Shown piece by piece: positions 26,441 to 62,544 of a stretch of 64,000 bases of DNA. The notes under the pieces are model-generated. The model was not told where the DNA came from and did no database searches. It was given only the letters and a program-made list of their open reading frames with translations. This stretch comes from Escherichia phage REP5: sequence record OQ174504.1. One strand, 5' to 3'. Made by a program: the position numbers and the translations under genes. How positions within the stretch are numbered: position 1 is the stretch's first letter; each line of letters opens with the position of its first letter.

Positions 26441-26474
26441 CTTTTCTTTACCGGAGAAATAGATTGTTTAAGTT

Positions 26475-26643: not shown

Positions 26644-26729
26644 TTGGCGGCTACGATGAGACTTGAACTCACATCATCTCCCAATATCCTTTTACGTGGG
26701 AGTATTTTAACCAAATTAAACTACATAAC
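26644..26729 (-). tRNA. type II tRNA, anticodon unresolved (possibly degenerate)
   Basis: 86 nt; acceptor GGTTATG/CGTAGCC with CCA; T-arm GTGAG-TTCAAGT-CTCAT; Leu-like D-arm; anticodon region CACGTAAAA with only a 3-bp stem. Confidence 0.35.
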
Positions 26730-26734
26730 CTTTA

Positions 26735-26822
26735 TTGGTGTGCCGTGTAGGAGTCGAACCTACCGAGTCTCAATGACAAGGGATTTACAGTCCCCACCGC
26801 TACCATCTACGGGATAACGACA
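26735..26822 (-). tRNA. tRNA-Tyr (GUA), type II
   Basis: Anticodon stem GGGGA/TCCCT, loop CTGTAAA, long variable arm, T-arm GTAGG-TTCGACT-CCTAC, CCA. Confidence 0.55.
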
Positions 26823-26830
26823 CATTTAAA

Positions 26831-26906
26831 TTTGCGGTTAGTCAGGGATTCGAACCCTGTGCCATTCGCTTAACAGGCGACCGCACATACCTTATGTGCT
26901 TCCTAA
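26831..26906 (-). tRNA. tRNA-Asn (GUU)
   Basis: D-stem GCAC/GTGC, anticodon stem GTCGC/GCGAA (one mismatch), loop CTGTTAA. Confidence 0.55.
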
Positions 26907-26966
26907 CCATATTTAGTATTACCAGACCGTATCTTTCAATTTTTTCCGCTAAAAATTTGATAAGTG

Positions 26967-26990
26967 TTGCTGTAAACGGTCTTCTGTAAA
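26967..26990. repeat. tRNA-cluster repeat element, copy 3
   Basis: TTGCTGTAAACGGTCTTCTGTAAA, directly abutting the 3' end of the tRNA at 26992. Confidence 0.55.
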
Positions 26991-26991
26991 A

Positions 26992-27068
26992 TTGGAGGCG
27001 GGTGCAGGAGTCGAACCTGCCGATACCATGCTAATGAGACATGTGAGACGCCCTTTCTCTATACCCGC
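26992..27068 (-). tRNA. second CAU-anticodon tRNA (Met, fMet or Ile2)
   Basis: D-stem GAGA/TCTC, anticodon stem CATGT/GCATG, loop CTCATTA; 1-72 mismatch. Confidence 0.5.
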
Positions 27069-27133
27069 AATTCTTAATGACCAGACCAAATCTCTTCTTT
27101 GTCCGATTTACCTTCAGATGAATAAGATTAAGT

Positions 27134-27157
27134 TTGCTGTAATTGGTCTTCTGTCAA
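27134..27157. repeat. tRNA-cluster repeat element, copy 4
   Basis: TTGCTGTAATTGGTCTTCTGTCAA, abutting the 3' end of tRNA-Glu. Confidence 0.5.
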
Positions 27158-27160
27158 AAC

Positions 27161-27238
27161 TGGCGTTCCAGAAGGGATTTGAACCCTCAGATATCCACTT
27201 TGAAAGAGTGGTGACTATACCATTTTGTCTACTGGAAC
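27161..27238 (-). tRNA. tRNA-Glu (UUC)
   Basis: Acceptor GTTCCAG/CTGGAAC, anticodon stem CCACT/AGTGG, loop CTTTCAA. Confidence 0.6.
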
Positions 27239-27245
27239 ATTAATT

Positions 27246-27325
27246 TGGTCTCCGTTGAAGGATTTGAACCCTCGACCCCTTGCTCCCAAAGCAAGTGCTG
27301 CTAAACCAAACTGAGCTAAACGGAG
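27246..27325 (-). tRNA. tRNA-Pro (UGG)
   Basis: Anticodon stem CTTGC/GCAAG, loop TTTGGGA, T-arm GAGGG-TTCAAAT-CCTTC, CCA. Confidence 0.55.
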
Positions 27326-37964: not shown

Positions 37965-38234
37965 CTATTTAGCCCCGTTGCGTCGATTAGTTAGTGCCTT
38001 CTTTGTCGTAGTACAGGGAGACAATTTTTCTCCCCAATAGTGATAAGTATAACCATCCTTGAGAACTTCTTGTTTTGTTTCCTCCCAGAACTTTTCTGAA
38101 GGATTATAGCCTTTGATAGTCTGACTGATAAGACCTTTCACCATTTCAAAGGCGTTATCAGTTCCTACAATGTCAAATTTAACATCCAGAGAGGAAAAAC
38201 CGAACTCGTTAGCAGTAGCGCGGATAGTTGCCAT
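37965..38234 (-). CDS. hypothetical small protein
   Basis: 89-aa ORF with cassette-type RBS. Confidence 0.45.
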   Translation of the reverse strand: MATIRATANEFGFSSLDVKFDIVGTDNAFEMVKGLISQTIKGYNPSEKFWEETKQEVLKDGYTYHYWGEKLSPCTTTKKALTNRRNGAK

Positions 38235-38300
38235 TTTTGAATCTCCTAGTTTAAGGGTTTTACTTAGTGGGGAAGGTCATTCCCTCCCCGTTGATTGACA
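38235..38300 (-). promoter_or_regulatory. repeated upstream cassette, copy 1 (class A hairpin)
   Basis: CTTAAACTAGGAGATTCAAAA-ATG core; hairpin GGGGAGGGAATGACCTTCCCC; upstream TTGACG-17-TAAATT. Confidence 0.5.
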
Positions 38301-38302
38301 AT

Positions 38303-38833
38303 TTACAGATTTTTGATTGTCTCGTCAATATCTTTTTCAATATCTTTTAAAGTTTTTTCTAAGTTCTTGATATTGAAAGATAAGCCTTCTCCCAGTGTCT
38401 TAGAGTAACCACTAGGACGTGAGTTATATAATTCGATTTCTTCCACTTCGAAGAGACTAACCAACTCACCGCTTACACTGTAAGCCATAGAAACAGTATT
38501 TACAGGGGCTTTATAGAACTTGTTTAAGGTCTTGATAGAACGCTCATAAGCCATTTTATAACCATTTAAAAGGTTTTTAACATGATTACGAACGTTTTTA
38601 CACTCATCTAAGTAAAGCCCTAAAAACATCGGGAGAAGTTCCGCGACAGCTTGCATAAAGTGAGAGACTACAACAGTAGAAACATTACGACGATGAACGT
38701 AATAAGCCCCGTTTTCTGATTTGGTGATGGTTGCAAAGTGTACACCATTGCAGAGAAATTCGTATGTGTCTTTTACAGGTTTAGACATTACAGCATTTGA
38801 ACGAATGAAGTTGATAGCTTTGAACTTGTTCAT
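38303..38833 (-). CDS. hypothetical protein
   Basis: 176-aa ORF with cassette-type RBS. Confidence 0.45.
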   Translation of the reverse strand: MNKFKAINFIRSNAVMSKPVKDTYEFLCNGVHFATITKSENGAYYVHRRNVSTVVVSHFMQAVAELLPMFLGLYLDECKNVRNHVKNLLNGYKMAYERSIKTLNKFYKAPVNTVSMAYSVSGELVSLFEVEEIELYNSRPSGYSKTLGEGLSFNIKNLEKTLKDIEKDIDETIKNL

Positions 38834-38930
38834 TTTTGAATCTCCTAGTTTAAGGATTTTATTCAGTGGGGAAGGTCATTCCCTCCCCGTTGATTAGTAA
38901 TTTACTTGTTTTGATATCTGATTGCAAGCA
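38834..38930 (-). promoter_or_regulatory. repeated upstream cassette, copy 2 (class A)
   Basis: Same RBS core and hairpin; TTGCAA-17-TAAATT upstream. Confidence 0.5.
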
Positions 38931-39057
38931 ATTTTTTAAGTTTATCTTTAAAGAAATCTTTTAAGTGAATCCCTTTAAGATAAACCCCCTCGAACAAAGT
39001 TACCAATGTCAAGAGGGATTGTCAACACTTTTTTAGAAGTTTTTTGTAAGTTCTTGA

Positions 39058-39399
39058 TTAGCTTATAAATATTTTTTCAGGTTTTACGTAGCTGATACGT
39101 TGATTTTTTAGCAGGTCATCCCAGATTAGCGCGGCAATATGAGAATAGCCGGATTCACGTAGAAGCTTCATTGCTTTACATCTCGTTTCAAAGCGGGTTG
39201 CATAGTGCTCACTATTTAAAACCGTTTTAATCCCTTCGTTGTCTGTATGGATAATCTGCATCACTTGGAAGGGGCTTGCTTCCTCGCCTTTATTCCATTG
39301 CTCAAAGTATTTTAGGCACTGCATAGGTGTCATCTTGTCGCTTACTTGGGTTGACCAAGATGAATCCGGTTTATTGGTAATTACAGTTACGTGAGCCAT
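39058..39399 (-). CDS. hypothetical protein
   Basis: ORF 39058..39444 re-started at the Met following the cassette RBS (MAHVTVI...). Confidence 0.4.
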   Translation of the reverse strand: MAHVTVITNKPDSSWSTQVSDKMTPMQCLKYFEQWNKGEEASPFQVMQIIHTDNEGIKTVLNSEHYATRFETRCKAMKLLRESGYSHIAALIWDDLLKNQRISYVKPEKIFIS

Positions 39400-39485
39400 T
39401 TTAGAATCTCCTAGTTTAAGGGTTTTATGTAGTGGGGGGGTCATTACCTCCAGTTGATTAGTAATTTACAGATTTTTATCCGGCT
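39400..39485 (-). promoter_or_regulatory. repeated upstream cassette, copy 3 (class A variant)
   Basis: CTTAAACTAGGAGATTCTAAA-ATG; hairpin GGAGGTAATGACCCCCCC. Confidence 0.45.
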
Positions 39486-39488
39486 TGT

Positions 39489-39722
39489 CTAGTCTTTTTC
39501 TATGATAATTTCATCTTGTCCGTCAACACTGTCAAAATAAACGCCGTCGCTGTCTTCTGTCTTAAAGTAACACTGAATGTCATCACTGGCGGGGTAGTCT
39601 TGTCTTGCTATCTGGCAAACCTGAATGGCATTTTCTTTACTCCCTGTAAACTCCCCAAGCTCTTCGAAATCACATGAATGGCCATTACAAATAGAAAGGA
39701 TGAGGTAAACGGTTGTAAGCAT
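39489..39722 (-). CDS. hypothetical small Cys-containing protein
   Basis: 77-aa ORF; different upstream hairpin (GCCCCTTGTAGGGGC). Confidence 0.4.
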   Translation of the reverse strand: MLTTVYLILSICNGHSCDFEELGEFTGSKENAIQVCQIARQDYPASDDIQCYFKTEDSDGVYFDSVDGQDEIIIEKD

Positions 39723-39788
39723 GATTAAAGCCCCCTAAAAGCCCCTACAAGGGGCTGAATAGTGTTTATAAGGTGATTGCATAGGTTT

Positions 39789-40331
39789 TTATAAAAAGCT
39801 CTTTAAATCCTCTTCTGCGATGTTTCCCGTTAGTGTGTCCATGATGTCACAAAAAACCTGAATGCTGTCCGACTGCTGAACACTTTTAGCAAGTAGTTCT
39901 AATGTCTCATCAAGATAATTCATATTTGGGTTATCCAATGAAGGGAGACAAAAAGGCGAAAACATCGCATTAAACTCAGTTACGTAAACCTTTTTAATCC
40001 AATTTAAATCGAAGTATTCCGTAAAACTTGCCACGTTCGCCATATTATCACAAGAATAATCATCATTTAACTCATCTTCTGGAATATCAAGTTCCAAGAT
40101 AACAATATTTTGGGTTTTCATCTGGAAAGCTGCGGTGATGGCGGCATTGCCCAGAGCTTGCTGGATACCTTCAGAGATTATCTCTTCCTCATCGTCGCCA
40201 TAGATTTTATTTTCTGGATAAACGTAAAAATTCCCATCCATATCCGAACAATTCCATGCACCTGATGGCTTATCACCGTTATTAATCAGGTTGCAGAAGT
40301 TTTCTTGAGTAGTACCGTGAAAGCATTTCAT
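39789..40331 (-). CDS. hypothetical acidic protein
   Basis: 180-aa ORF with cassette-type RBS. Confidence 0.45.
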   Translation of the reverse strand: MKCFHGTTQENFCNLINNGDKPSGAWNCSDMDGNFYVYPENKIYGDDEEEIISEGIQQALGNAAITAAFQMKTQNIVILELDIPEDELNDDYSCDNMANVASFTEYFDLNWIKKVYVTEFNAMFSPFCLPSLDNPNMNYLDETLELLAKSVQQSDSIQVFCDIMDTLTGNIAEEDLKSFL

Positions 40332-40418
40332 TTTTGAATCTCCTAGTTTAAGGATTTAGTGGTAAAGCTCTTTATCTGGGGTTTACTTTATCGAACTATA
40401 AACCCCTTGTAAAGTACT
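40332..40418 (-). promoter_or_regulatory. repeated upstream cassette, copy 4 (class B hairpin)
   Basis: RBS core plus hairpin GGGGTTTATAGTTCGATAAAGTAAACCCC and AAAGTACTTT palindrome. Confidence 0.5.
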
Positions 40419-40622
40419 TTATTTGTTATTTTTGACAACTTTTAAAACTGCACGGTAACCTAAGCAATACGAATCACCGAAGAGAGACCGACCCATGAAG
40501 GAGTCCTCTGTAATATCTTTCGCCGTGACGGTTTTTTCTACGCCGTGAAAGAGAACTACATCACCAACTTTAATATCTTTGATGTGCGTTGTTTCAATGG
40601 TTAAACCGTTAATAATAGCCAT
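40419..40622 (-). CDS. hypothetical small protein
   Basis: 67-aa ORF, starts MAII. Confidence 0.4.
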   Translation of the reverse strand: MAIINGLTIETTHIKDIKVGDVVLFHGVEKTVTAKDITEDSFMGRSLFGDSYCLGYRAVLKVVKNNK

Positions 40623-40715
40623 TTTTGAATCTCCTAGTTTAAGGGTTTTTATTTAGTGGGGAAGTCATTTCCTCCCCGTTGATGTGTAATTTAATCTATC
40701 TAAAAACCAGTGTCA
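40623..40715 (-). promoter_or_regulatory. repeated upstream cassette, copy 5 (class A)
   Basis: RBS core plus hairpin GGGGAGGAAATGACTTCCCC. Confidence 0.5.
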
Positions 40716-40724
40716 AGAAAATTT

Positions 40725-41129
40725 TTAAAGTTCTGCATAAATTGCATCGCAGATATTACGGAAATCGTGATTTGGCAAATTACGCTGCAACCAAGTGGCG
40801 AAAAAGTCAGCGATTGCATAATTAGCATCATACTCAACGGATAGCCATACTTTCACGGCGAATCTAAACATTTTTAAATCAAGCTCTTTATTCATTACCT
40901 TAGATTTGCCCAACATGTCGGCCATTTCGTATTGTGCACCGTCTAGCGTGATACCTGCTGCAACGTCAGCCAGTGAGTTTTTTACGCTTTCAACGTCTAA
41001 GATAACACTTTGAATCTTCCCAATAATGTTGTGCAATGTTTCATCTGGTGCTGATGACGTAATAACATTAATCCGGTTAACGGTCAAACGTGCTTTTAAG
41101 ATTGATAATTCACGGTTATTAATAGCCAT
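40725..41129 (-). CDS. hypothetical protein
   Basis: 134-aa ORF, starts MAIN. Confidence 0.45.
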   Translation of the reverse strand: MAINNRELSILKARLTVNRINVITSSAPDETLHNIIGKIQSVILDVESVKNSLADVAAGITLDGAQYEMADMLGKSKVMNKELDLKMFRFAVKVWLSVEYDANYAIADFFATWLQRNLPNHDFRNICDAIYAEL

Positions 41130-41214
41130 TTTTGAATCTCCAATTTAGGATTTAGTGGTAAAGCTCTTTATCTGTGGATTAAGGTAACAACTTTTAAACC
41201 CCTTGTAAAGTACT
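41130..41214 (-). promoter_or_regulatory. repeated upstream cassette, copy 6 (class B variant)
   Basis: CCTAAATTGGAGATTCAAAA-ATG plus AAAGAGCTTTACCACTAAATCC block. Confidence 0.45.
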
Positions 41215-41487
41215 TTACACTAAATGCAGCTTTTTACCTTTTACCATGATGTAACTTGATGCGCTATTGCTGTAAACATCCTGATAAATTCTGCGCAAAC
41301 GTCCTTCGTAGTATACTTTCCAACTAGTTGGAATCTTTTTACCGTATCCGGTAGCAGTTTTTTGGAATCCTGCAAGTTGCCAATCCAAAATATGCTGTTC
41401 AGCTTGTAAATCCTCGAAGTGCATTACACCGTTCACGTAGTGGCGTAGGGTTACGTTTAAGGTGCGACCGTTGTTAGTAGTATGCAT
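41215..41487 (-). CDS. hypothetical small protein
   Basis: 90-aa ORF. Confidence 0.4.
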   Translation of the reverse strand: MHTTNNGRTLNVTLRHYVNGVMHFEDLQAEQHILDWQLAGFQKTATGYGKKIPTSWKVYYEGRLRRIYQDVYSNSASSYIMVKGKKLHLV

Positions 41488-41573
41488 TTTGAATCTCCTA
41501 GTTTAAGAGCTTTATGTAGTGGGAGGTGATGACCTCCCGTTGATTAGTAATTTACTTGTTTTTAAAATCAAAA
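41488..41573 (-). promoter_or_regulatory. repeated upstream cassette, copy 7 (class A variant)
   Basis: RBS core plus perfect hairpin GGGAGGTCATCACCTCCC. Confidence 0.45.
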
Positions 41574-41906
41574 TCAAGAAAAATTTTTTCGTTTGTTCAG
41601 TTCTTGAACAATTACAGCGTAGTAGTCTTTTAAGTCACTGATATTTAAAGCATTTATCAGGGAATTATAATCATCGACTAACTGAAAATCCTCTTTGAAG
41701 ATGTCACTAATCTGGTAGGTTTTCGCTTTAAATCTGAAGCTCATTTCTAGCCGCTTTATTTGCTCATCACTGAGGCGCCCTAGAAAGCTTTCTACAAGGT
41801 TATTGCTAACCTGCTGTGTGATTGCCTTACTTGCCAGATTATAGGCTTTATATGCCTTATATAGTGCCAGAATGGCTATGATTGCGGTGATGCCAGTCAT
41901 TAGCAT
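41574..41906 (-). CDS. hypothetical membrane-anchored protein
   Basis: 110-aa ORF with hydrophobic N-terminus; overlaps upstream gene (no own cassette). Confidence 0.4.
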   Translation of the reverse strand: MLMTGITAIIAILALYKAYKAYNLASKAITQQVSNNLVESFLGRLSDEQIKRLEMSFRFKAKTYQISDIFKEDFQLVDDYNSLINALNISDLKDYYAVIVQELNKRKNFS

Positions 41907-42196
41907 GGTGTTACCTCTTTTTGTGAGATTTTGCCATTTACAGTTATCTCATAGGATTCTAATAAGTCACTTTTAGACTTTACTGGACTTTTAAAAGTAT
42001 TATCGTAAATATTGACTTGCAATACAGGTTTTTTATACTCCCTGCAACTATTCCATAAACAAATCACTACACGACGGCCTTTTATTTTGCCGTGTAACCA
42101 TTCCATAACATCATGATTATTTCTTGATGTTTCAATGAAATCAATTTTGTTGAGTAACTTGCTTAGATTTTCACGGACTTTATTTGATAATTTCAT
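41900..42196 (-). CDS. hypothetical small protein
   Basis: 98-aa ORF with cassette-type RBS. Confidence 0.4.
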   Translation of the reverse strand: MKLSNKVRENLSKLLNKIDFIETSRNNHDVMEWLHGKIKGRRVVICLWNSCREYKKPVLQVNIYDNTFKSPVKSKSDLLESYEITVNGKISQKEVTPC

Positions 42197-42284
42197 TTTA
42201 GAATCTCCAGTTTAGGATTTAGTGGTAAAGCTCTTTATCTGGGGCTTAAGATATCAGCTTTTAAGCCCCCTGTAAAGTACTTTA
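42197..42284 (-). promoter_or_regulatory. repeated upstream cassette, copy 8 (class B)
   Basis: RBS core plus hairpin GGGGCTTAAAAGCTGATATCTTAAGCCCC. Confidence 0.5.
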
Positions 42285-42542
42285 TCAGATTAAATTGCCA
42301 GTTAATGATAAGTGCATTTTATAGCCTTGCTTAGTGAATACGTTCACTTTACCGAGTGTTTCCACACCTTTAAAAAGGTTGTTTGAACTATGTTTTAAGA
42401 TTAAACGTTTATCAACCTTTACGCCCCATCTTACAGCAGATTTTTTCCCGTTGTCAATCACTTTCCCGCATAACTTTTTAGCCATAACGCGAGCGTCATC
42501 ACGAGTTTTTGCAGAAATTACAACGTTTTTGATAATAGCCAT
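42285..42542 (-). CDS. hypothetical small basic protein
   Basis: 85-aa ORF, starts MAII. Confidence 0.4.
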   Translation of the reverse strand: MAIIKNVVISAKTRDDARVMAKKLCGKVIDNGKKSAVRWGVKVDKRLILKHSSNNLFKGVETLGKVNVFTKQGYKMHLSLTGNLI

Positions 42543-42630
42543 TTTTGAATCTCCAATTTAGGATTTAGTGGTAAAGCTCTTTATCTGGGGCTTACTTTAT
42601 CGAACTATAAGCCCCTTGTAAAGTACTTTA
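42543..42630 (-). promoter_or_regulatory. repeated upstream cassette, copy 9 (class B)
   Basis: Near-identical to copy 4 (hairpin GGGGCTTATAGTTCGATAAAGTAAGCCCC). Confidence 0.5.
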
Positions 42631-43011
42631 TTAGTTAATTTTGAAAATTGTCACATAACCATCACTGCCGATTATTTGAGACACTCCAGCTTTTTCCACT
42701 TGATAGCCCATATTTTCAAGATGATAAACAGCATCATCGTAACCATATGCGCCGCCCTGATAACGTCTCTTATTGCATTTTATCAGGTTTTTACCACGTC
42801 CAGCAAGCGCATTCAGTACGGCTTTTTCACTTGAAAGAGTACCGTCTAACATGGTTGCCGTGTAATGGTTAATCCTGTTACCATTTACGTCATATTTAAA
42901 ATTGAATGCGTGAACAACAATCAATTTGCCGTTAAATTTTTCATCAAGTGACTTCTCCAGTGCGTTGCGGAAGTTGTCTTTGTTGATGAATTTCGGTGCA
43001 CGATAAGCCAT
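42631..43011 (-). CDS. hypothetical protein
   Basis: 126-aa ORF. Confidence 0.45.
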   Translation of the reverse strand: MAYRAPKFINKDNFRNALEKSLDEKFNGKLIVVHAFNFKYDVNGNRINHYTATMLDGTLSSEKAVLNALAGRGKNLIKCNKRRYQGGAYGYDDAVYHLENMGYQVEKAGVSQIIGSDGYVTIFKIN

Positions 43012-43100
43012 TTTTGAATCTCCTAGTTTAAGGTTAGTTAATAAAGCTCTTTATCTGGGGCTTAAGATACCAACTTTTAAGCCCCCTGTAAAGTACTTTA
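43012..43100 (-). promoter_or_regulatory. repeated upstream cassette, copy 10 (class B)
   Basis: RBS core plus hairpin GGGGCTTAAAAGTTGGTATCTTAAGCCCC. Confidence 0.5.
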
Positions 43101-43307
43101 TTAGATTTCGTAGTAGTAAACTGCTGTCTGTCTTATGTGCTTTCTTGTGATTCTCGTAAGGTAGCAATTAGAATTTATAGCCGTTTCTACATGGTTGCAA
43201 TAGTCAGTTTCTGATATCCTAGTCCATACGTCACAAATTTTCATGTAGAAACGTTTTACATCTGTATCAACGTTGGTTGTAACCATCAATTCACGGCAGT
43301 AAGTCAT
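43101..43307 (-). CDS. hypothetical small Cys-rich protein
   Basis: 68-aa ORF, first gene of the cluster. Confidence 0.4.
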   Translation of the reverse strand: MTYCRELMVTTNVDTDVKRFYMKICDVWTRISETDYCNHVETAINSNCYLTRITRKHIRQTAVYYYEI

Positions 43308-43814: not shown

Positions 43815-44600
43815 TTAGTTATTTGCGTCTAAGAAGGTAACTTCTGGTGAAGAGAAGATTGCCCCAATATCCTCATCAGTTCTTGCATAGATGTAGGCAT
43901 CTGCATCACTGCCAAATGTTACTGCAATCCTGTGATTGCTCTTCGACAGGTGGGTAACTAGAGCGTTACTTAGAGACATCTTTTCAACCGGAGGGTTACT
44001 TTGATGTACCTTACCTTTTCTTCGTCTGAAGAGGGTAACTGCATTATCTGAGAACACTGCTACGCCTGCAAAGTATTCTGGTTCACAGTAGTTCTTCCAA
44101 CCTGAGTGTAACTCATTATACATTTTTGCTTCATAGACATACAGATAAACATCTACACTCTTCATTGCCTGATTAATGATAACTGTGACAGCTTGAGGGT
44201 CAAGTCCACCGATACCTGCGCCAATCATAGGTAACCCAACTTTCTTCAACTGATTAACTTCACAGTATCTGTTAAGTTGCTTCAAAGATGACTCTAAAGC
44301 ACTGTAACGGGCATCTTTACCAGTCTTAAGCTGAGTGTAAAGATTAGCTATACGACCTTGTTTTAAACGCGCTACAGAGAAATTACCTAGTAAATTTTCA
44401 CAGGGTTTGTGGCCTATACCACCTGCATACAGATAAACTTCTGTATCGGTCTCATATGCTTTTGGGTAAAGTTTAGAAATCTTAGCAGCGATACCTGCAC
44501 CCATTAAGTTCATACAGTTGCAACCGTGACCAATGATATCAAACTTACCCTTATCAAATGCGGAGAAGATATCCCCATTGATGATTTTTACAATACCCAT
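43815..44600 (-). CDS. macro-domain (ADP-ribose-binding/processing) protein
   Basis: 261-aa ORF; N-terminal IVKIINGDIFSAF..DIIGHGCNCMNLMGAGIAAKI resembles macro-domain P-loop region. Confidence 0.5.
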   Translation of the reverse strand: MGIVKIINGDIFSAFDKGKFDIIGHGCNCMNLMGAGIAAKISKLYPKAYETDTEVYLYAGGIGHKPCENLLGNFSVARLKQGRIANLYTQLKTGKDARYSALESSLKQLNRYCEVNQLKKVGLPMIGAGIGGLDPQAVTVIINQAMKSVDVYLYVYEAKMYNELHSGWKNYCEPEYFAGVAVFSDNAVTLFRRRKGKVHQSNPPVEKMSLSNALVTHLSKSNHRIAVTFGSDADAYIYARTDEDIGAIFSSPEVTFLDANN

Positions 44601-46164: not shown

Positions 46165-46168
46165 TGTA

Positions 46169-46981
46169 TTATTCTTGACTGTAATAGTTGACAAGTGAAA
46201 TCGCTTGATTCATCAACAACTTATCAGCCTGTGCTCCGCGACCAGCTTGTAATGCCAGTTGGTATACCTCTGTAACATATTTGTTAGACATACCTTCACA
46301 GTAGTCATTATAGTCTTCCCAAAAGGAAAATGCAGCATCACCATATAGGCGTAGTGTAATTAACATTGCTGCACGAATCCCAGAAGAATATTTCCGTTTT
46401 GCGTTTACTACACCTTTAAGCTGTACTTCAAGAGAATCAATTTGTTCCAGCTCATTTTTAAAGTCGTTAAGATATTTAACTGTTTCAGTGTTAGATACTT
46501 GTTGTACACCGTAGTATGCAGCAACATACTTAATAGCAGTTGCCCAAGATGCTTTCATCAGTTCTGACTCTGGGTTGAAAGAAATCATCTTCATATTTCC
46601 GTAATAAACTTCTGAAGGTTTTTCTCTTGCTAACTCAGAGTCAAAATGAGTGTACAAATCTGTGACATCCAATATGGAGTTCACATGGTATATAACTACA
46701 ATCAAGTTTTCTGGTCGTGTCAGGTTACCAACTTTCCATGCCTCTCGACGTGAGTGCCCATCAATGATGAACAGTGAACTGCCGAACTTAGCCACATGGA
46801 CTACTGTTTGGTCTGGTGATACGTCACCATTAAGGTGTTTACTTTTCAGACGCTTAAGTGTATTTCGTTGACGAGGGTTTTCTTTGTAACGTTTTTCATT
46901 AAGAAAATCCTCGACACTGATAATCTTAGTGTGAATTTTAACAACCTTGCCATTCAGTGCTACATTGATGCTGTTTGCCAT
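46169..46981 (-). CDS. ParB-like N-terminal domain protein
   Basis: 270-aa ORF; KENPRQR (box-I-like) and IIDGHSRREAW (GxxRxxA-like) motifs. Confidence 0.5.
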   Translation of the reverse strand: MANSINVALNGKVVKIHTKIISVEDFLNEKRYKENPRQRNTLKRLKSKHLNGDVSPDQTVVHVAKFGSSLFIIDGHSRREAWKVGNLTRPENLIVVIYHVNSILDVTDLYTHFDSELAREKPSEVYYGNMKMISFNPESELMKASWATAIKYVAAYYGVQQVSNTETVKYLNDFKNELEQIDSLEVQLKGVVNAKRKYSSGIRAAMLITLRLYGDAAFSFWEDYNDYCEGMSNKYVTEVYQLALQAGRGAQADKLLMNQAISLVNYYSQE

Positions 46982-46992
46982 AACTTGATACC

Positions 46993-47877
46993 TTAGTTGT
47001 GGATAATTACTTCGTTAATATCTTTGCTTCTCTGTGCATGTATTGTGTATGAATGGCTAACCTCTGTCAAGTTAAAATTTTCAGGAATTAGTTTTGCCCA
47101 TCCATCCCACTGAGAGTTTGACATCAAAACTTTAGAGCCTAACTCCCCCCAAGAAATCATATCTTCGCATAATTTTACAGACATCTCAATGTCAAACTTT
47201 GCACCATATTTCTGGTTGGTGTTGATATACGGGGGGTCACAGTAAATAACTGTGCCTTCTCCATGTTTTATGTCAACCCTGTCATAAGGTTCACTGCTAA
47301 GTATTACCCTCTCATCAGTGATAAAACTGTAGAACGCGGATAGTGATTCTTTAGTTTTTGTGAAGAAAATCTCTTCTTCCAGTAAATACCCACAAGGTGT
47401 TGCATAGTGACCTTTCATCTCTTTAGTAGTCTGCCATACACCACCAAAACTTAGTTTTTGAAGGAAAAACTGTCTGGCGTAGTACCTGTAGTCATATGCT
47501 CCCTCTTCACCAAGCAAAAGAAGTTCCTCTCTTACACTGTAATACATTTTATAGCGTAGACGGTTATGACGCTGGCCTTTCACGGCATACTCTTCCTGCA
47601 TAGGTAAGGCTAAGTACCTCTTTGACAAGTACTCAAATTCTTCCATGAAGTTCTCATAGTCATCTCTGAAAGTTGTGTAAAGACCTATAATATGTTTATT
47701 TATCTCATTAATAAACACTTTTGCCTCTGGATATCTGTTATAAGCCCATATAGCTACTGAACCACCACCTGAAAACAGGTCATAGAAGTTTGTACAGTTG
47801 TCTGGAAAGACACCTAAACGCTCATACTCTTTTAATATTCTTGTTTTACCACCAAGATATTTGAACATCGGCTTCAT
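46993..47877 (-). CDS. dam: DNA N6-adenine methyltransferase (Dam-like)
   Basis: 294-aa ORF; motif I FSGGGSV and motif IV DPPY. Confidence 0.75.
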   Translation of the reverse strand: MKPMFKYLGGKTRILKEYERLGVFPDNCTNFYDLFSGGGSVAIWAYNRYPEAKVFINEINKHIIGLYTTFRDDYENFMEEFEYLSKRYLALPMQEEYAVKGQRHNRLRYKMYYSVREELLLLGEEGAYDYRYYARQFFLQKLSFGGVWQTTKEMKGHYATPCGYLLEEEIFFTKTKESLSAFYSFITDERVILSSEPYDRVDIKHGEGTVIYCDPPYINTNQKYGAKFDIEMSVKLCEDMISWGELGSKVLMSNSQWDGWAKLIPENFNLTEVSHSYTIHAQRSKDINEVIIHN

Positions 47878-47894
47878 TAATACTCCTTGAAATT

Positions 47895-53817: not shown

Positions 53818-53842
53818 TTAAAAAGGCTCCCGTAGGAGCCTC
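53818..53842 (-). terminator. rho-independent terminator
   Basis: Minus-strand hairpin GGCTCCTACGGGAGCC followed by TTTTT. Confidence 0.6.
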
Positions 53843-53855
53843 TTATCATATACTT

Positions 53856-55637
53856 TTAAAGCTGCTTGTCAATATTATTTCGAATATCACCAAGAGTTGT
53901 GTAGCCGAACTGCTCAGAGTCGCTAAAGACTAGACGTAAAGCACAAGCTGGATGTTCAAGTGCATCTGCAAAGCTCTGGAACCCATAGCCATCTACAGCT
54001 TTCAGATTTTCACCATCCCACATAGGTGCTACACCACCAAAAGCAGACTTCTTAACACCGCTATCTGTTTTAGGGTCTTTTGCAAGCATAATCTCTTTAC
54101 CACCAATGCTTGCAAGAGTTGCTTTGACAGCAAATGCAAAGGTATCACGAGTCATGTACTGGTAAGTGTAAGAACCCACACCAAACACTACGTTAGAGCT
54201 TGCAAAACCCATTTCATACAAACGCTTCAGGATTTCGTTTGCACGTTCCAACGTGATAGAGTCACCATAAATAAGGCCAATGTGTTCATCCAGTACCTTA
54301 AAACCTTTAGAGTTGATAGTCCCTCCAAAGATGTTATACAAGGTCTTAATAGCCCCATCAATCTCTGCTACAGGACGTGTTACAACGTTTGCAGAACCAA
54401 CCATATAAGCGTTTTTCAACATCACTGTATCAGCAACTTCAAAGTCTTCTCTGTCAACAACCATTTCGTAGCCTTCTGACAGTAGCCATCCAGCAATACC
54501 ATAATTGATGTTTTCAAGCTTCATGTTCAGGACGGTGCTCAGCATTGTATCACTAGCTTCCAGCTTGCTAAGATGTTCGTAATAAGCCTTTTTAGCACAC
54601 TCTAAATGGATTGCTTTGTATCCTGTGACAATATGTACAGGGTCTCCAGAGTCAGGACGAATTACCAGTTTACCATCACGTTCCATAATCTCTTTACGGA
54701 GTTCTGGTAATATAACTGATACAGTTCTCCAGAAGTTATAAGTATCTGAAACAACACTTGCAATACCAGTTGGGTAAGTTTCTGTTAAGAAACGACGGAA
54801 GGTTTGTAACTCACCTTTAAAACGTCTTTCTTCTTCAATCAACTCATTACCACCTTCCCAAGCAATGTTTGCACACATTACAGAGTGTTCAGTGGCTGGT
54901 ACAGAGCTACCAATATCAGAGATTGGGTAGGACTGTCCATAGATTCGTTTAGCCGTGTATACAGCAGGGAAGCTATCAGTCCCTTTAAAGCTGGTTAAGT
55001 GACCTACAGCATTAAATGCGTCATCAGTAAAGCCAGACATACCACGCATAGCAAAGTCATGGCACTGATAAGGCAAATGTAAGTCATTGTCACAAGTAAG
55101 GTCAGACCACTTCTTACAAATACGTTTGTAGTGCAATGCAATAGTTGCAATGGTACAAGCCTTCCAAATCTCAGCAGAGAAAGCATCTTCCAGATAACCT
55201 GCTACCCAATGGAAACCTGAAACAGTGTTCTGGAAGACAATCATTGGTACACGCATCGGAACAACTGTACCTTCTTCTACAGCGTATACTTCAACTGGTA
55301 GATAACCTAAGTCGTGAAGTGCTTCCCAATGCTCTCGACCGATAGCATCTTTACCTAGAACACCATTCATGACTTCTAAGATTTCGTCAACGGCTTCTTT
55401 TTTATCACGTTCAAAGAAAGTGGCGTTCCAGTGGTCTATCAAGTAATCTTTAACAAAACGTTGAATACCAAAAGCTACTACACCGTCAATTGCTAAAGGA
55501 CTGTTAAACCATTTATCACTACGTGGTGTCAGGTTCAACATAAGATATTGCGTAGCATCTGGATACTGATATATATGTGATGCCTTGTAAGCATCTGCAT
55601 TAAGACCTGCTGGTACTGCATAAAGTGATTTAGTCAT
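53856..55637 (-). CDS. nadV: nicotinamide phosphoribosyltransferase family protein (NadV/NAMPT-like; possibly a NARP1 Namat)
   Basis: 593-aa ORF; size and sequence character of NAMPT family (by recall); directly downstream of Prs-like gene. Confidence 0.7.
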   Translation of the reverse strand: MTKSLYAVPAGLNADAYKASHIYQYPDATQYLMLNLTPRSDKWFNSPLAIDGVVAFGIQRFVKDYLIDHWNATFFERDKKEAVDEILEVMNGVLGKDAIGREHWEALHDLGYLPVEVYAVEEGTVVPMRVPMIVFQNTVSGFHWVAGYLEDAFSAEIWKACTIATIALHYKRICKKWSDLTCDNDLHLPYQCHDFAMRGMSGFTDDAFNAVGHLTSFKGTDSFPAVYTAKRIYGQSYPISDIGSSVPATEHSVMCANIAWEGGNELIEEERRFKGELQTFRRFLTETYPTGIASVVSDTYNFWRTVSVILPELRKEIMERDGKLVIRPDSGDPVHIVTGYKAIHLECAKKAYYEHLSKLEASDTMLSTVLNMKLENINYGIAGWLLSEGYEMVVDREDFEVADTVMLKNAYMVGSANVVTRPVAEIDGAIKTLYNIFGGTINSKGFKVLDEHIGLIYGDSITLERANEILKRLYEMGFASSNVVFGVGSYTYQYMTRDTFAFAVKATLASIGGKEIMLAKDPKTDSGVKKSAFGGVAPMWDGENLKAVDGYGFQSFADALEHPACALRLVFSDSEQFGYTTLGDIRNNIDKQL

Positions 55638-55649
55638 CTTTTAATCTCT

Positions 55650-55675
55650 CTCAAAATGGGGCTTTTAAGCCCCTA
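55650..55675 (-). terminator. intergenic hairpin between Prs-like and NAMPT-like genes
   Basis: GGGGCTTAAAAGCCCC followed by ATTTT; may be attenuator rather than full terminator. Confidence 0.35.
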
Positions 55676-55682
55676 TAAACTT

Positions 55683-56582
55683 TCAATCAAGGTTTGCTAC
55701 AGTAACTTGACTATAATGTGTTAAGCTACGGTCTTTAGCTTCTCCTAAAGAGTTTGTAGTGTAGATGTGGTCAATACCATTGTCAAGTAAGTTTTCAACA
55801 CCTTTAGAGAAAATACCATGAGTTACATAGAGTTCCACACGTTTTGCACCTGCTTCACGTAGGTGTTTAGCTGCCTCTACGAAGGTTCGACCACCATCAC
55901 AGATATCATCAAGAATCATAACAGTTTTATCTGTCAAATCAACATCATCAAGGATTCGCATACCAGTAATTTCACCAGTCTTAAGGTTACGTACTTTAGA
56001 CATTGTGATATATGGTTTATCCACCTCTTTAGCAGTCTCTGCAATCTTCTTAGAAGCACCTGCATCTGGGGCTACTAAGTAATCAACCAGTGGGTCATTT
56101 GCATAGTGGACTGCAATTTCCTTTTGAGAAATACTCTGGAAGCAGTTAAACAGGTTATCTGATACATAACTGTGAGGGTCAACGGCACAGACTGCATCAA
56201 AACCCATTGCATTAACCTGTTGTGCAAACACTTTCAAAGCTGCTGCATCACCTTTAAACATGTGACGGTCATAACGTGCATTTGGCAAATAGTAAAAGAT
56301 AGCAGTCTTCATAGCAAACTTATGAGGTACTAAATCATCAATTGCCTCTTTAGCAAGTGCCACAGCAAATAATGTGTCCTTGTCATAACCTTTCACAATC
56401 ATAATCACATTGTTGATAGACGATGCTGCATAAGCAGTAAAATCAACAAGCTCTTGTGAAAAATGTCCACCAATCTCACCAGAAGGGAATTGGATGATGT
56501 TAAACTCTTCTTCATGAGTTCCTTTAGTCGGTGAATGAACTGTAACACGGATAGATGTTTTCATAGTTTCTCTCTTAGTCAA
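55683..56582 (-). CDS. prs: ribose-phosphate pyrophosphokinase family protein (Prs-like; possibly a NARP1 Adps)
   Basis: 299-aa ORF; PRPP-binding loop ILDDICDGGRT. Confidence 0.75.
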   Translation of the reverse strand: MTKRETMKTSIRVTVHSPTKGTHEEEFNIIQFPSGEIGGHFSQELVDFTAYAASSINNVIMIVKGYDKDTLFAVALAKEAIDDLVPHKFAMKTAIFYYLPNARYDRHMFKGDAAALKVFAQQVNAMGFDAVCAVDPHSYVSDNLFNCFQSISQKEIAVHYANDPLVDYLVAPDAGASKKIAETAKEVDKPYITMSKVRNLKTGEITGMRILDDVDLTDKTVMILDDICDGGRTFVEAAKHLREAGAKRVELYVTHGIFSKGVENLLDNGIDHIYTTNSLGEAKDRSLTHYSQVTVANLD

Positions 56583-56853
56583 AAGTTACGTTTGTTACTG
56601 CCATTGCAGATTTGCATTTTGCAGGGTCTACAACGTGATAAAGTACACTACAGTTACCTGTGCTGTCTGGTACAGGCTTTACCCATTGATGCTTTATAGT
56701 TGGCTCTCCTAAGTCTTTGTAAGAACCATCTGTAAAGTTGTTTACCATCTCAAGTGCAATTGGTTCTGGAACATGACCACGTATCATGTACATTTCACAA
56801 CCATTACCGCCTTCACTGACTAATGGTAAAATCTCCCACTTCTCTTTAGCCAT
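56575..56853 (-). CDS. hypothetical protein
   Basis: 92-aa ORF. Confidence 0.4.
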   Translation of the reverse strand: MAKEKWEILPLVSEGGNGCEMYMIRGHVPEPIALEMVNNFTDGSYKDLGEPTIKHQWVKPVPDSTGNCSVLYHVVDPAKCKSAMAVTNVTFD

Positions 56854-57361
56854 TGTAAGTTGCCCTATAAACTGTCTCGAACTTCAACAGGAGAGATATT
56901 GCCAAATCTGTATAGTTGTTGTCAAGCACATCTGGCATATTATTTTTGATATATTTCTCTTGTTCTTCATAGGTCATCTTAGGGATACTTAGGAGGCTAT
57001 CCCCTTGCTTCTGGTTATCAAGTTTAGTCTGAATAAACCAGTTTGCACAGTGATGCTCACCACCCTTTGTAACAGGTTTGTAGTGGCCTAATGTGAAGGA
57101 TTGACTACCTGTGTATCTGCAAAGTTTATTGAGTACCGTAATGGTGTTCTTCACAACAAAACATTCATACAGGTTGTCTATGGTGTAGTGTGGGTAATAT
57201 CGGAATAGTGCTCTTTCACGAGTACTCTCACGATTCCAGAGAACCATATGATTAGAGTTAGAAGGGTCGTATTGGTGGGAGTCAATGAACTCTTGACGTT
57301 CCTCAAAGCTAAGTCTTAACACTGACATTGCAGCAGAACGTTTTAGGTTTGACAGATACAT
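56846..57361 (-). CDS. hypothetical protein with HNH-like motif
   Basis: 171-aa ORF; HYKPVTKGGEHHCANW resembles HNH core (weak). Confidence 0.35.
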   Translation of the reverse strand: MYLSNLKRSAAMSVLRLSFEERQEFIDSHQYDPSNSNHMVLWNRESTRERALFRYYPHYTIDNLYECFVVKNTITVLNKLCRYTGSQSFTLGHYKPVTKGGEHHCANWFIQTKLDNQKQGDSLLSIPKMTYEEQEKYIKNNMPDVLDNNYTDLAISLLLKFETVYRATYNG

Positions 57362-57371: not shown

Positions 57372-57400
57372 AAATAAAAAGGGAACCTTTACAGTTCCCC
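57372..57400 (-). terminator. rho-independent terminator
   Basis: Minus-strand hairpin GGGAACTGTAAAGGTTCCC followed by TTTTTATTTT. Confidence 0.6.
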
Positions 57401-57412
57401 TATAGTATCTGT

Positions 57413-61031: not shown

Positions 61032-61347
61032 CTTGTTGTTCAGGTAAGTTCGCTAAGCTTACCCCGCTTTATTCAAGCTGCTTACTGTCGCCAGTAAGTC
61101 CAGACTATATCTTCTACTTATTTCTAAGTAGCGTACCATTTCGAGTCGCTTGACCCTACACCGCTACATTCATCACGGTTAGTCGTTCGGCATTTAGATG
61201 TATTCAAACTCATATTCGAAGTTATTTGGCATGTAAGACCCCTATGTTGTATAGTTTCTTACATCGTACATCATTTAGCACAGGATTGTCTACATCTGTA
61301 GAGTTTCCCTGTTTAGGCACGTTTTAGATGAGCTATAGAGCTTGTTA
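61032..61347 (-). other. group I intron (ORF-less) in nrdD
   Basis: 316 nt between exons; P/Q/R/S-like elements TGCCTAAACAGGGAAA, AATCCTGTGC, GAACGACTAACC, AAGATATAGTC; P9-like hairpin CTTACTG-GCGA-CAGTAAG; 5' exon ends in U, intron ends in G. Confidence 0.65.
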
Positions 61348-62544
61348 ACCCATCGGCGAAATAACCTTGCCAGAACGCTCAAAAGCTTCTGCTACAGCAC
61401 CATGACCAGATACACTTAAGAAGTCTGGATACATTGCTTTAGAACAACACTCAATAGCTTTACTGTACAGGTGGCCTTGACAGATATTCTCATTGTGTCT
61501 CTTCTGGTCATAAATATAAACCAGTTTAGGGAATACAACAGGCTTCTTGCTCTTACCTTGTCCATTCATACGAACATCTAGGAGAGTACTTGCAATCATG
61601 TATTGCAGTCGGTTGTCTTCATTAGACATGTCTGAGTCAAGTAACCCAAATGTCAAAGTTGTGAATGCAAAATCCCCACGACTACAAGGTACAGTATTTA
61701 GTTTCATTTCAAGTGACTGGAAACCTTGAGTTAGCTCAATCTGTAGCTGCTCCATGACATAATTGTGGTGATGTTCTTTAGGAATACCATAAGATGCTGC
61801 TTTCTCAGCATGATAGCGTAGAGACTTCTTAGCATACGGTACAAGTACCTTATCAATCTCTGCTAAAGTAAAGCCACCAAATTGCTGTGCAGTTGCTGAA
61901 AGTACTACGTCACCAATAACCTGTAAGGCTGATAGTACAGATTTAGGTTCACAGTATTCAATGCCAGACATTTCAAAGCCACCTTTCAGTACTTTACCAA
62001 TGTCAAACAGGCAACAGTTGATACCACCAAAAATTAGGTCTCTTAAATCATGGATATAGATAAACCCTTTTTCAATGGCTTCCAATTCCTCTGGTGTTAA
62101 ATGGTACTGTTTAAAGATTTCTTTAGTCAGGTAACCACGGATAATTGAACCTTTCGTAGAAATTAAACTGCTGTCAAAGTTAGCATTTTCACGGTCACCT
62201 AAGAAGAGTGTATCTTTAGTCTTCTGGTAGAGTTCATCCCAGTTTTGAGCAACCTCTTTACGGTAATTTCTATATGTTGAGTAAGACTCATAAATCTCGT
62301 GATTGACTTCTGCCAAAGCACCCTCAACAATACTGTGAATATCATTTACTGAAACGAGTAAATTATTCTGCTTAGTAGATTTTACCAGAATCCTCATAAA
62401 TGCTGACTCAAGAGCTTGAGTAACATCTGGTGGAAGCTCTTTATAACCAACTCTGTTAGCTGACTTTGTGACTGCTGCTAAAACTTTTTTGATATCAGGT
62501 TCTTCAAGTGAGCCATTCTTTTTAATAATCTGTACTTTGTTCAT
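61348..62544 (-). CDS. nrdD: anaerobic ribonucleoside-triphosphate reductase, exon 1 (ATP-cone N-terminus)
   Basis: N-terminal ATP-cone-like VQIIKKNGSLEEPDIKKV; exon ends ...VISPMG before intron. Confidence 0.75.

Follow-up and report, generated by a model that had tools for sequence, protein, structure and literature searches.

Assignment by orthology of a Prs-like and NAMPT-like gene pair of Escherichia phage REP5 to the NARP1 counter-defence pathway

Does the gene pair of Escherichia phage REP5 in which a Prs-like gene precedes a nicotinamide phosphoribosyltransferase (NAMPT)-like gene rebuild NAD+ from ADP-ribose and nicotinamide, as in the NARP1 pathway, or does it serve classical Prs/NadV salvage? 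We addressed this question in a window of 64,000 nucleotides of the REP5 sequence (OQ174504.1), in which a first-pass annotation had placed a Prs-like gene directly upstream of a 593-aa NAMPT-like gene at 53856-56582; our ORF scan agreed with it exactly. The locus is 100% identical to that of Escherichia phage REP6 (Ounavirinae, Felixounavirus) across the Adps/Namat region. The upstream gene, adps (ADP-ribose pyrophosphate synthetase, Prs family, 293 aa; 55683-56564, minus strand), was called from the ORF scan, Bas63 orthology, Pfam, and HMM searches, and the downstream gene, namat (nicotinamide ADP-ribose transferase, NAMPT family, 593 aa; 53856-55637, minus strand), from the ORF scan, Bas63 orthology, and PDB matches. 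The longest ORF in the adps frame is 299 aa (55683-56582, minus strand) and begins with a TTG at 56582 that shares nucleotides with the stop codon of the preceding gene. A likelier start is the ATG at 56564, since it is preceded by AGAGAGA and yields 293 aa, the length annotated in both Bas63 and REP6. The spacer from adps to namat on the same strand is 45 nt (55638-55682), which gives adps the Namat neighbour typical of the Adps clade (97% of which is encoded adjacent to a Namat gene). The Adps/Namat locus was found in 259 phage records, in 231 of which the match spans 80% or more of the 4-kb query, and this recurrence shows that both genes are real.

NARP1 was discovered in Bas63 (Escherichia phage JohannRWettstein), a member of the same genus, as bas63_0079 (Adps) and bas63_0080 (Namat) (Osterman et al., bioRxiv 10.1101/2024.02.11.579819). 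REP5 Adps is 79% identical to gp79 over 293 aa, full length and ungapped, rising to 96% in the C-terminal 113 aa, and REP5 Namat is 97% identical to gp80 over its 593 aa, again ungapped, with an identical clamp loop and clamp helix. Synteny extends to either side of the pair (NrdG ... gp76-gp77-gp78-gp79-gp80 ... rIIA-rIIB), and Bas63 shares the intergenic hairpin as well as the terminator-like hairpins on both flanks; in Bas63, however, namat is followed by a further gene of 114 aa (0081), which the REP5 window does not have. The NARP1 reading (Adps plus Namat), put forward in the first-pass annotation as a candidate, is therefore borne out more firmly than that word implied, the two genes being orthologues of Bas63 gp79-80 in conserved synteny. 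In Bas63, deletion of genes 79-80 leads to SIR2-HerA sensitivity and lower NAD+, ADPR-pyrophosphate (ADPR-PP) is seen only when cells that carry the defence are infected by wild-type phage, and rescue needs neither pncC nor nadR of the host (bioRxiv 10.1101/2024.02.11.579819). According to the PhageMaP preprint, single deletion of g79 or g80 cuts the plating of Bas63 on Sir2-HerA by 10^4-10^6 and complementation restores it, so that the anti-defence phenotype of Bas63 has been validated genetically in two independent studies.

The Prs-like protein carries the Pfam domains Pribosyltran (PF00156, 4e-11) and Pribosyl_synth (PF14572, 1.4e-9), that is, a Prs-family fold with a PRPP-type loop. The loop DDICDGGRT, already noticed in the first-pass annotation, was read from the alignment with Bas63 gp79 and lies at aa 219-227 of the 293-aa protein (55884-55910, minus strand), where it aligns with DDLSSFGGT in SPbetaL1 Adps, DDICDGGGT in DyoEdafos Adps, and DDMIDTGGT in E. 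coli Prs. Among the NCBIfam Prs models, REP5 Adps passes only the broad TIGR01251 (127 bits vs a cut-off of 113) and falls below every Prs equivalog cut-off (107.5 vs 296, 96.7 vs 297, 70 vs 438, others likewise). HMM placement, which had been proposed at the outset as a check, favoured Adps: on an Adps-only model built from four non-Ounavirinae Adps, whose genes each lie at or near a Namat gene, the REP5 protein scored 175.8 bits vs 104.5 for E. coli Prs. Pairwise scores differ by a modest margin, with 71-123 bits against distant validated Adps and 67 bits against E. coli Prs. These comparisons, with E. coli Prs as the cellular comparator, place the predicted protein with phage Adps and not with cellular Prs. 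ADP-ribose pyrophosphorylation has been established with SPbetaL1 Adps in vitro, and for Bas63 the detection of ADPR-PP establishes it in vivo. Because Bas63 Adps itself purified poorly, the in vitro data on Adps come only from distant homologues (SPbetaL1 and DyoEdafos, whose Adps are 34% and 28% identical to that of REP5).

The NAMPT-like protein matches NAPRTase (2e-34) and NAMPT_N (9e-6) in Pfam, and its best PDB match is the pair 9w5w/9w5x (E 1.6e-128), the crystal structures of SPbetaL1 Namat (PMC12774641), with true Nampt structures at 1e-41 to 1e-50. That paper gives a Namat signature, GSX-phi-X-phi-X-phi-TRD (X aromatic, phi small polar), as absent from Nampt. This selectivity-clamp helix motif is found in REP5 Namat as GSYTYQYMTRD at aa 488-498 (54144-54176, minus strand), aligned with GSFTYQYNTRD of SPbetaL1, and at the same position Xanthomonas Nampt has GGALLQKVDRD, without aromatic residues. 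In the clamp loop, adenine stacking is supplied by an Arg, or by a Lys or Tyr followed by a stacking residue, and the NAR paper describes Bas63-type Namats as having Lys and then the adenine-stacking residue. The REP5 loop, PRSDKWFNSPLA, is the same as that of Bas63, with K42-W43 (55509-55514, minus strand) as the clamp-loop residues. By alignment, the Nampt-type catalytic core (the binders of nicotinamide and of the NMN ribose-phosphate, and the histidine) is present. The NAM/NMN-site residues of SPbetaL1 Namat, as listed in PMC12774641, align with the REP5 protein (D15, Y17, F195, R198, D221, A248, R327, D329, G458-D459, G488-S489, R497-D498), with small changes at two listed positions (SPbetaL1 S190 to A196 and A362 to S460), and the NAD+-binding residues are all kept or conservatively changed. 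His251, in an ATEHSV stretch (54885-54887, minus strand), is conserved, aligns with SPbetaL1 His245, and is taken to be the catalytic histidine described for Namat in that source.

On these grounds, the gene pair is very probably the NARP1 counter-defence pathway of a Felixounavirus, its function here being assigned by orthology. Gene presence, orthology, motifs, and operon layout were observed in REP5, the chemistry and the anti-defence phenotype are those of published orthologues, and we infer that the REP5 allele behaves as they do. A host NADase effector (e.g., Sir2-HerA, type I Thoeris) would split NAD+ into ADP-ribose and nicotinamide; Adps (55683-56564) would then, with ATP, pyrophosphorylate the terminal ribose of ADP-ribose to give ADPR-PP, from which Namat (53856-55637) would displace pyrophosphate by nicotinamide in Nampt-type chemistry. 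The Namat clamp, formed by K42-W43, Y490, and Y494, would select the adenine-bearing substrate, and NAD+ would form directly, bypassing NMN and the host's PncC and NadR. The corresponding reactions were reported for the SPbetaL1 enzymes, which convert ADPR and ATP to ADPR-PP, and ADPR-PP and nicotinamide to NAD+ (bioRxiv 10.1101/2024.02.11.579819). SPbetaL1 Namat prefers ADPR-PP over PRPP and forms NAD+ directly (PMC12774641), and direct NAD+ synthesis from ADPR by Namat with Adps is also described for DyoEdafos.

The names carried by generic HMM libraries and by GenBank annotation would instead suggest classical salvage, in which PRPP is made from ribose-5-phosphate and NMN from PRPP and nicotinamide, leaving host enzymes to finish NAD+; Namat even passes the NCBIfam equivalog NF006629 (469 bits vs a cut-off of 405). 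We regard this as extremely unlikely, given that the Bas63 orthologues overcome defence in a host without pncC and nadR while ADPR-PP accumulates, that SPbetaL1 Adps gave no product in an assay meant to test Prs activity, and that in REP5 the adenine clamp is present in Namat, Adps lies below the Prs equivalog cut-offs, and no NMN adenylyltransferase was found among the 155 annotated features of REP6 (a check at the level of annotation). The REP6 'NAD synthetase' was considered as an NMNAT or NadE and rejected, for the protein is a SegE GIY-YIG endonuclease (PF19835, 9e-28). The first-pass view that sequence alone could not separate NARP1 from Prs/NadV does not hold, since orthology, the Namat clamp motif, the PDB scores, the failure at the Prs equivalog cut-offs, and the Adps-only HMM together separate them. 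Some classical Nampt activity is possible all the same, because Namat retains PRPP-to-NMN activity in vitro (PMC12774641). The pair also sits in a nucleotide-metabolism region near nrdA, nrdB, nrdD, and nrdG, which would suit a role mainly in raising the NAD+ supply for phage metabolism (e.g., ligase, redox) in ordinary infection. Such a role is highly improbable, as ADPR-PP appears with Bas63 only when a defence system is present and the large fitness effects are specific to defence-carrying hosts.

Comparison with other known systems places the NARP1 pair of REP5 further. SPbetaL1 NARP1 has the Adps-Namat pair, the catalytic residues, and the clamp-helix motif in common with REP5 at 34% (Adps) and 43% (Namat) identity, but its genes abut without the spacer and hairpin of REP5, its clamp loop has Arg40 in place of Lys-Trp, and its Namat is without the ~80-aa and ~15-aa insertions of REP5 Namat. 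The core Adps and Namat are likewise homologous to those of NARP1-AP (Adps-Adpp-Namat; Vibrio phage Gary and its relative River4; bioRxiv 10.64898/2026.01.28.702374), in which the macrodomain gene lies inside the operon, whereas the macrodomain gene of REP5 is 9.3 kb from namat. NARP2 (Nampt and Nmnat, Vibrio phage KVP40) and cellular Nampt/Prs share the two folds and the nicotinamide substrate. NARP2, however, needs PRPP and an NMN adenylyltransferase, the latter being the enzyme missing from the REP6 annotation, and unlike both of these systems, the Nampt-like protein of REP5 has an adenine clamp and its Prs-like protein falls with Adps.

The NARP1 reading is thus correct and already known, as the genes are direct orthologues of those of Bas63 in which the pathway was discovered, and it adds nothing new to the biology of NARP1. 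It does expose a misnaming, in which HMM libraries and GenBank present Adps and Namat as ribose-phosphate pyrophosphokinase and nicotinamide/nicotinate phosphoribosyltransferase, and the 259 related phage records could be relabelled via orthology and the clamp motif. By analogy, REP5 is predicted to resist NAD+ depletion by Sir2-HerA, DSR2, and type I Thoeris-like systems, and such a prediction could be useful in picking Felixounaviruses for therapy or biocontrol. The small testable extensions are the homing-endonuclease insertion in relatives, the mosaic Adps N-terminus, the Namat insertion, and an unlinked Adpp-like macrodomain.

The remark in the first-pass annotation that only a hairpin separates the two genes was confirmed: the spacer holds the intergenic hairpin GGGGCT-TAAA-AGCCCC (55658-55673, minus strand), after which come ATTTTG and the ribosome-binding site of namat. 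A 61-nt stretch including it has a folding z-score of -2.5 vs shuffles, and its stem is unchanged in Bas63 and Mordin, the differences being in the loop only; it was not scored as a terminator in our scan because the T-run is short. We rejected the hairpin as a required regulatory element, as Felix O1 and SUSP1 have an HNH_3 homing-endonuclease gene between adps and namat, where no such hairpin was seen, and the two genes overlap or abut in phiEa21-4 and SPbetaL1. A terminator-like hairpin just 3' of namat (53821-53844, minus strand) is identical in Bas63, with a post-Namat terminator annotated in Mordin and phiEa21-4, and another (57379-57401, minus strand), kept in Bas63 and annotated as a terminator in Mordin, lies upstream of a 171-aa ORF. 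Between these hairpins (57401-57379 and 53844-53821), the 171-aa ORF, a 92-aa ORF, adps, and namat form one unit. The 171-aa ORF (56846-57361, minus strand) is the orthologue of Bas63 gp77 (96% identical to bas63_0077), and the 92-aa ORF (56575-56853, minus strand) is 99% identical to bas63_0078, with its stop 10 nt before the adps start.

It is conceivable that these two ORFs are NARP1 accessories (Adpp/RyDEP-like) which would feed in NAD+-derived products or regulate the pathway, making a four-gene module. The four genes are joined by overlaps or by a 10-nt gap between the terminator-like hairpins, Felixounavirus, Mooglevirus, and Suspvirus all have them in this order, and accessory genes within NARP1 operons have precedent (Adpp, RyDEP). 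Nevertheless, we consider the four-gene module unlikely. The 171-aa and 92-aa proteins have no above-threshold Pfam match, Macro and RyR included; the search for an Adpp-type Macro domain gave no match in the three ORFs upstream of adps or the three downstream of namat, nor did the RyR domain (PF02026, RyDEP glycosidase) in the flanking ORFs. An unrelated gene occupies the slot of the 92-aa gene in phiEa21-4, and in phage alia the 7 kb to each side of the gene for the 171-aa homologue contain neither an Adps nor a Namat gene. In the profile search with the 92-aa family, 7 representatives matched among 1.84 billion proteins; one, P0035, was rejected as a repetitive artefact, and the only credible remote homologue, P0036, has no NARP1 nearby on its contig. 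Fold searches returned nothing usable; the structure model of the 92-aa protein was of low confidence (pLDDT 64) and had no meaningful fold match. In the PhageMaP preprint, Bas63 gp77 counters retron Ec67 (~10-fold), and only g79 and g80 are reported as Sir2-HerA counters. The first-pass suggestion that the flanking ORFs at 56575-57361 may be co-functional hence fares poorly, its support being positional, with homologues outside Ounavirinae unlinked to NARP1 and an Ec67 role for Bas63 gp77. The 171-aa protein belongs to phrog_3500, with a weak HNH match in PHROGs (1.8e-4); the GIY-YIG domain claimed for gp77 in the PhageMaP preprint was not reproduced, as Pfam at E<=10 gave only a sub-threshold DUF7167.

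The 5' ~360 nt of REP5 adps are a deeply diverged allele relative to Bas63, and the transition at the start codon is sharp. Over the first ~120 codons, the protein is 68% and the DNA 57-67% identical, with synonymous sites saturated, and the N-terminal parts of the Bas63-validated Adps and of REP5 Adps are consequently different alleles. We rejected diversifying selection on the N-terminus (pS ~0.8, i.e., saturated; dN/dS ~0.13; codons 1-180) and favour recombination with an old allele, which would explain the divergence as a mosaic 5' end. Homologue alignment also revealed an Ounavirinae-specific Namat insertion of ~76-80 aa (aa ~347-426; 54360-54599, minus strand), along with a second, smaller one at aa ~258-275. 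The larger is present in Bas63, Felix O1, Mordin, SUSP1, and phiEa21-4 and absent from SPbetaL1 and DyoEdafos, and River4 Namat has a shorter, unrelated insert at the same site. A Pfam search of the larger insertion gave no match, and the insertion is not discussed in the SPbetaL1 structure paper (PMC12774641).

Outside the NARP1 unit, a gene at 43815-44600 (minus strand) encodes a 261-aa macrodomain protein (Pfam Macro, 7e-8), a candidate Adpp-like ADPR-1''-phosphate phosphatase. Its identity to River4 gp177 is 29% (E 1e-15); gp177, encoded between Adps and Namat in River4, in turn has 79% identity to the Adpp validated in Gary. The PDB matches of the REP5 protein are OARD1 (2.7e-5) and Poa1p (0.007). 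By these matches, the predicted protein is a member of the Poa1p/TARG1-like family of the validated Adpp, although it is nearer to T4 Tk.4 (35%) than to Adpp and has an extra ~100-aa C-terminal part. We tentatively raise the possibility, doubtful as it stands, that Felixounaviruses run an extended NARP1 in trans, in which the conserved macrodomain protein would dephosphorylate ADPR-1''-phosphate produced by defences of the aRES type, or act on other ADPR derivatives, and thereby supply Adps-Namat with ADP-ribose over a distance of 9 kb, with the mosaic Adps N-terminus and the Namat insertion as further lineage adaptations. Such an in-trans link would escape the published operon-proximity screen, because that screen covered only genes within two genes.

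An ORF scan, Pfam matches, and the loop DDICDGGRT (aa 219-227 of Adps) confirmed a Prs-like gene beside a 593-aa NAMPT-like gene, both on the minus strand. The namat ORF spans 53856..55637 and its product matches NAPRTase and NAMPT_N, while the longest adps ORF (55683..56582, 299 aa, TTG start) encodes a member of the phosphoribosyltransferase and PRPP-synthetase-associated families. Since the TTG at 56582 shares bases with the stop codon that ends the gene upstream, and the ATG at 56564, with AGAGAGA just before it, gives a 293-aa Adps, as long as those annotated in related phages, the true adps is most likely 55683..56564. Around the locus, a 4-kb stretch matches Escherichia phage REP6 (OQ174505.1, Felixounavirus) with 100% identity and is carried at 90-95% identity by ∼200 more phages of Escherichia, Salmonella, Shigella, and Citrobacter. 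The GenBank labels for the pair are 'ribose-phosphate pyrophosphokinase' and 'nicotinamide (or nicotinate) phosphoribosyl transferase'.

NARP1 was discovered in the BASEL phage Bas63 (JohannRWettstein), also a Felixounavirus, as genes 79-80, the deletion of which results in SIR2-HerA sensitivity and less NAD+ (bioRxiv 10.1101/2024.02.11.579819). In the same study, ADPR-pyrophosphate was seen only with wild-type Bas63 in defence-carrying cells, rescue was independent of host pncC and nadR, and the SPbetaL1 homologues converted ADPR and ATP to ADPR-PP, and ADPR-PP and nicotinamide to NAD+. Independently, the PhageMaP preprint reports that single deletion of g79 or g80 cuts Sir2-HerA plating by 10^4-10^6, which complementation restores, with lesser effects on retron Ec86 and hhe. 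In our comparison with the Bas63 genome (MZ501086), Adps was 79% identical to gp79 (293/293 aa, ungapped) and Namat 97% identical to gp80 (593/593 aa); the neighbouring proteins were 96% (gp77) and 99% (gp78) identical, and synteny extended over either flank, with rII genes downstream in both phages. Judged by these identities, the shared gene order, and the near-identical neighbours, the adps and namat of the window are orthologues of Bas63 gp79 and gp80. The NARP1 reading favoured by the first-pass annotation is thereby upheld and the system is an already known one, a same-genus orthologue of the founding example; what is gained is a correction to the annotation, plus a few side leads, modest but testable.

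The rival reading, a classical Prs/NadV salvage pair, had been thought inseparable from NARP1 by sequence alone, which proved too cautious: the clamp motif, structure scores, HMMs, and Bas63 orthology do separate them. The best solved-structure matches of Namat (E 1.6e-128) were 9w5w/9w5x, confirmed as SPbetaL1 Namat by tblastn (100% match), compared with 1e-41 to 1e-50 for true Nampt of Xanthomonas and mammals. The Namat structure paper (PMC12774641) describes a Namat-only adenine 'selectivity clamp', consisting of a helix motif GSX-phi-X-phi-X-phi-TRD (X aromatic) and a variable loop giving a stacking residue. The Namat of the window has GSYTYQYMTRD at aa 488-498, whereas Xanthomonas Nampt has GGALLQKVDRD at this position; the clamp loop PRSDKWFNSPLA has no differences from that of Bas63, and the NAD+-contacting residues of SPbetaL1 Namat are kept or conservatively changed. 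Among the NCBIfam ribose-phosphate diphosphokinase models, Adps passes just the broad subfamily model (127 bits, cut-off 113) and falls far below the cut-off of every equivalog model. An Adps HMM built from four non-Ounavirinae sequences (SPbetaL1, DyoEdafos, ICP1, and River4) scored the window protein at 175.8 bits and E. coli Prs at 104.5. Pairwise, the gap is modest (71-123 bits against distant Adps, 67 bits against E. coli Prs), so the Bas63 orthology carries most weight for Adps. No NMN adenylyltransferase is annotated in REP6, and its 'NAD synthetase' (66581-67078, beyond the window; 21581-22078 of the REP6 sequence L018) is a SegE GIY-YIG endonuclease (PF19835, 9e-28), an annotation error that might misdirect attempts to reconstruct NAD pathways.

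Terminator-like hairpins at 57401-57379 and 53844-53821 (both minus) bracket a four-gene unit of a 171-aa ORF, a 92-aa ORF, adps, and namat; both are kept in Bas63 and annotated as terminators in Mordin. The first two ORFs have 8 nt in common, and just 10 nt separate the 92-aa stop from the adps ATG that follows it. As had been noticed, a hairpin (GGGGCT-TAAA-AGCCCC, 55658-55673) lies in the 45-nt spacer between adps and namat. Its stem is unchanged in Bas63 and Mordin, and it may influence RNA stability or relative expression. It is not required for NARP1: an HNH_3 homing-endonuclease gene sits at this position in Felix O1 (L016 5889-6380) and SUSP1 (L015 3891-4382), while the two genes overlap in phiEa21-4 and abut in SPbetaL1. 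Mordin (L014 2036-2964; L-numbers denote sequences with their own coordinates) has two added 149-aa genes between the 92-aa ORF and adps, and Bas63 an additional 114-aa gene 3' of namat.

The suggestion that the flanking ORFs are co-functional stands only insofar as they probably share one transcription unit with NARP1; outside the Ounavirinae their homologues are unlinked to NARP1, and we found no indication of a role in NAD+ reconstitution for either. The 92-aa protein is restricted to this phage group: it occurs in 230 phage records, almost all of them from Felix O1-like enterobacterial phages, and in 13 clusters of a 5.8-billion-protein set, and when 1.84 billion representatives were searched exhaustively by profile, seven matched the family. 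Its sole credible remote homologue, on a phage-like contig, has no NARP1 in its vicinity, an unrelated gene occupies its slot in phiEa21-4, and its structure model was poor, with no usable match in a fold search. The 171-aa ORF (56846-57361, minus; phrog_3500) is the orthologue of Bas63 gp77, reported in the PhageMaP preprint as a GIY-YIG protein and ∼10-fold counter of retron Ec67. Neither Pfam nor PHROGs reproduced the GIY-YIG signal, and only a weak HNH-like hint was seen (GH-x-KPVTKGGEHH-x2-NW ... DNQ). The family reaches phage alia of Justusliebigvirus, a genus with members that have Adps homologues; in alia no Adps or Namat gene lies within 7 kb, the neighbours being unrelated genes and nrd genes. 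With rIIA/B reported as QatABCD counters (PhageMaP preprint), the region resembles an anti-defence neighbourhood made up of gp77, NARP1, and rIIA/B.

At the very start codon of adps, DNA identity to Bas63 falls to 57-67% from 96-99% (diverged 5' third, 56200-56564), and it is regained over ∼600 nt; synonymous sites are saturated in codons 1-120 (pS ∼0.8, elsewhere 0.24-0.31). The sharp boundary and this saturation point to a recombinant, anciently diverged 5' allele, and diversifying selection was set aside as synonymous saturation favours the former. Among phage records, ∼155 Adps were at ≥90% identity and 93 at 60-80%, with that of Felix O1 different again; at least 2-3 N-terminal Adps alleles circulate among Felix O1-like phages. 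Ounavirinae Namats all bear a ∼76-80-aa insertion (aa ∼347-426, 54360-54599) and a smaller one of ∼15 aa (aa ∼258-275, ∼54813-54866), whereas the Namats of SPbetaL1 (crystallised) and DyoEdafos lack both and, in River4, a different insert occupies the site of the larger. Neither insertion had a Pfam match or detectable homology, and PMC12774641 is silent on them.

Encoded apart from the NARP1 genes, a 261-aa macrodomain protein annotated 'phosphatase' (43815-44600, minus; N-terminal PF01661, 7e-8) is conserved throughout the Felix O1-like phages and shares a family with T4 Tk.4 and the NARP1-associated Adpp; its additional ∼100-aa C-terminal part had no Pfam match. The protein shares 29% identity (E 1e-15) with River4 gp177, which is encoded between Adps and Namat, and gp177 in turn has 79% identity to Gary Adpp, a validated ADPR-1''-phosphate phosphatase (bioRxiv 10.64898/2026.01.28.702374). 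The family is not always tied to NARP1, because it occurs in 2860 phage records compared with 1560 with an Adps homologue, and T4 carries it while absent among the Adps matches listed; a link to NARP1 in the window is only hypothetical.

Relative to the GenBank REP6 record, the window has a 1.7-kb insertion at 46166-47878 that encodes a D12-class N6-adenine DNA methyltransferase (46993-47877, minus; PF02086, 2e-23) together with a 270-aa product lacking Pfam matches (46169-46981, minus). Identity to REP6 is 99.97% upstream of the insertion and 98.8% downstream, which makes the window a relative of REP6 and not the deposited REP6 sequence. Twenty-five tRNA genes are clustered at 22397-27325 (minus), and an Rfam tRNA match at 26648-26730, missed by ARAGORN, is 'tRNA-OTHER' in REP6. 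The anaerobic ribonucleotide reductase gene nrdD appears to be interrupted by a group I intron (61081-61462, minus; RF00028, 53.6 bits); the REP6 annotation gives nrdD in two fragments, and in Bas63 its counterpart is entered as a join of two segments that flank a homing-endonuclease ORF. At least seven small ORFs of unknown function within 38200-43120 follow copies of a 40-120-nt leader (minus-strand sense ...AAACCCTTAAACTAGGAGATTCAAAAATG); the copies look like a family of common promoter and ribosome-binding-site cassettes of an early-gene region.
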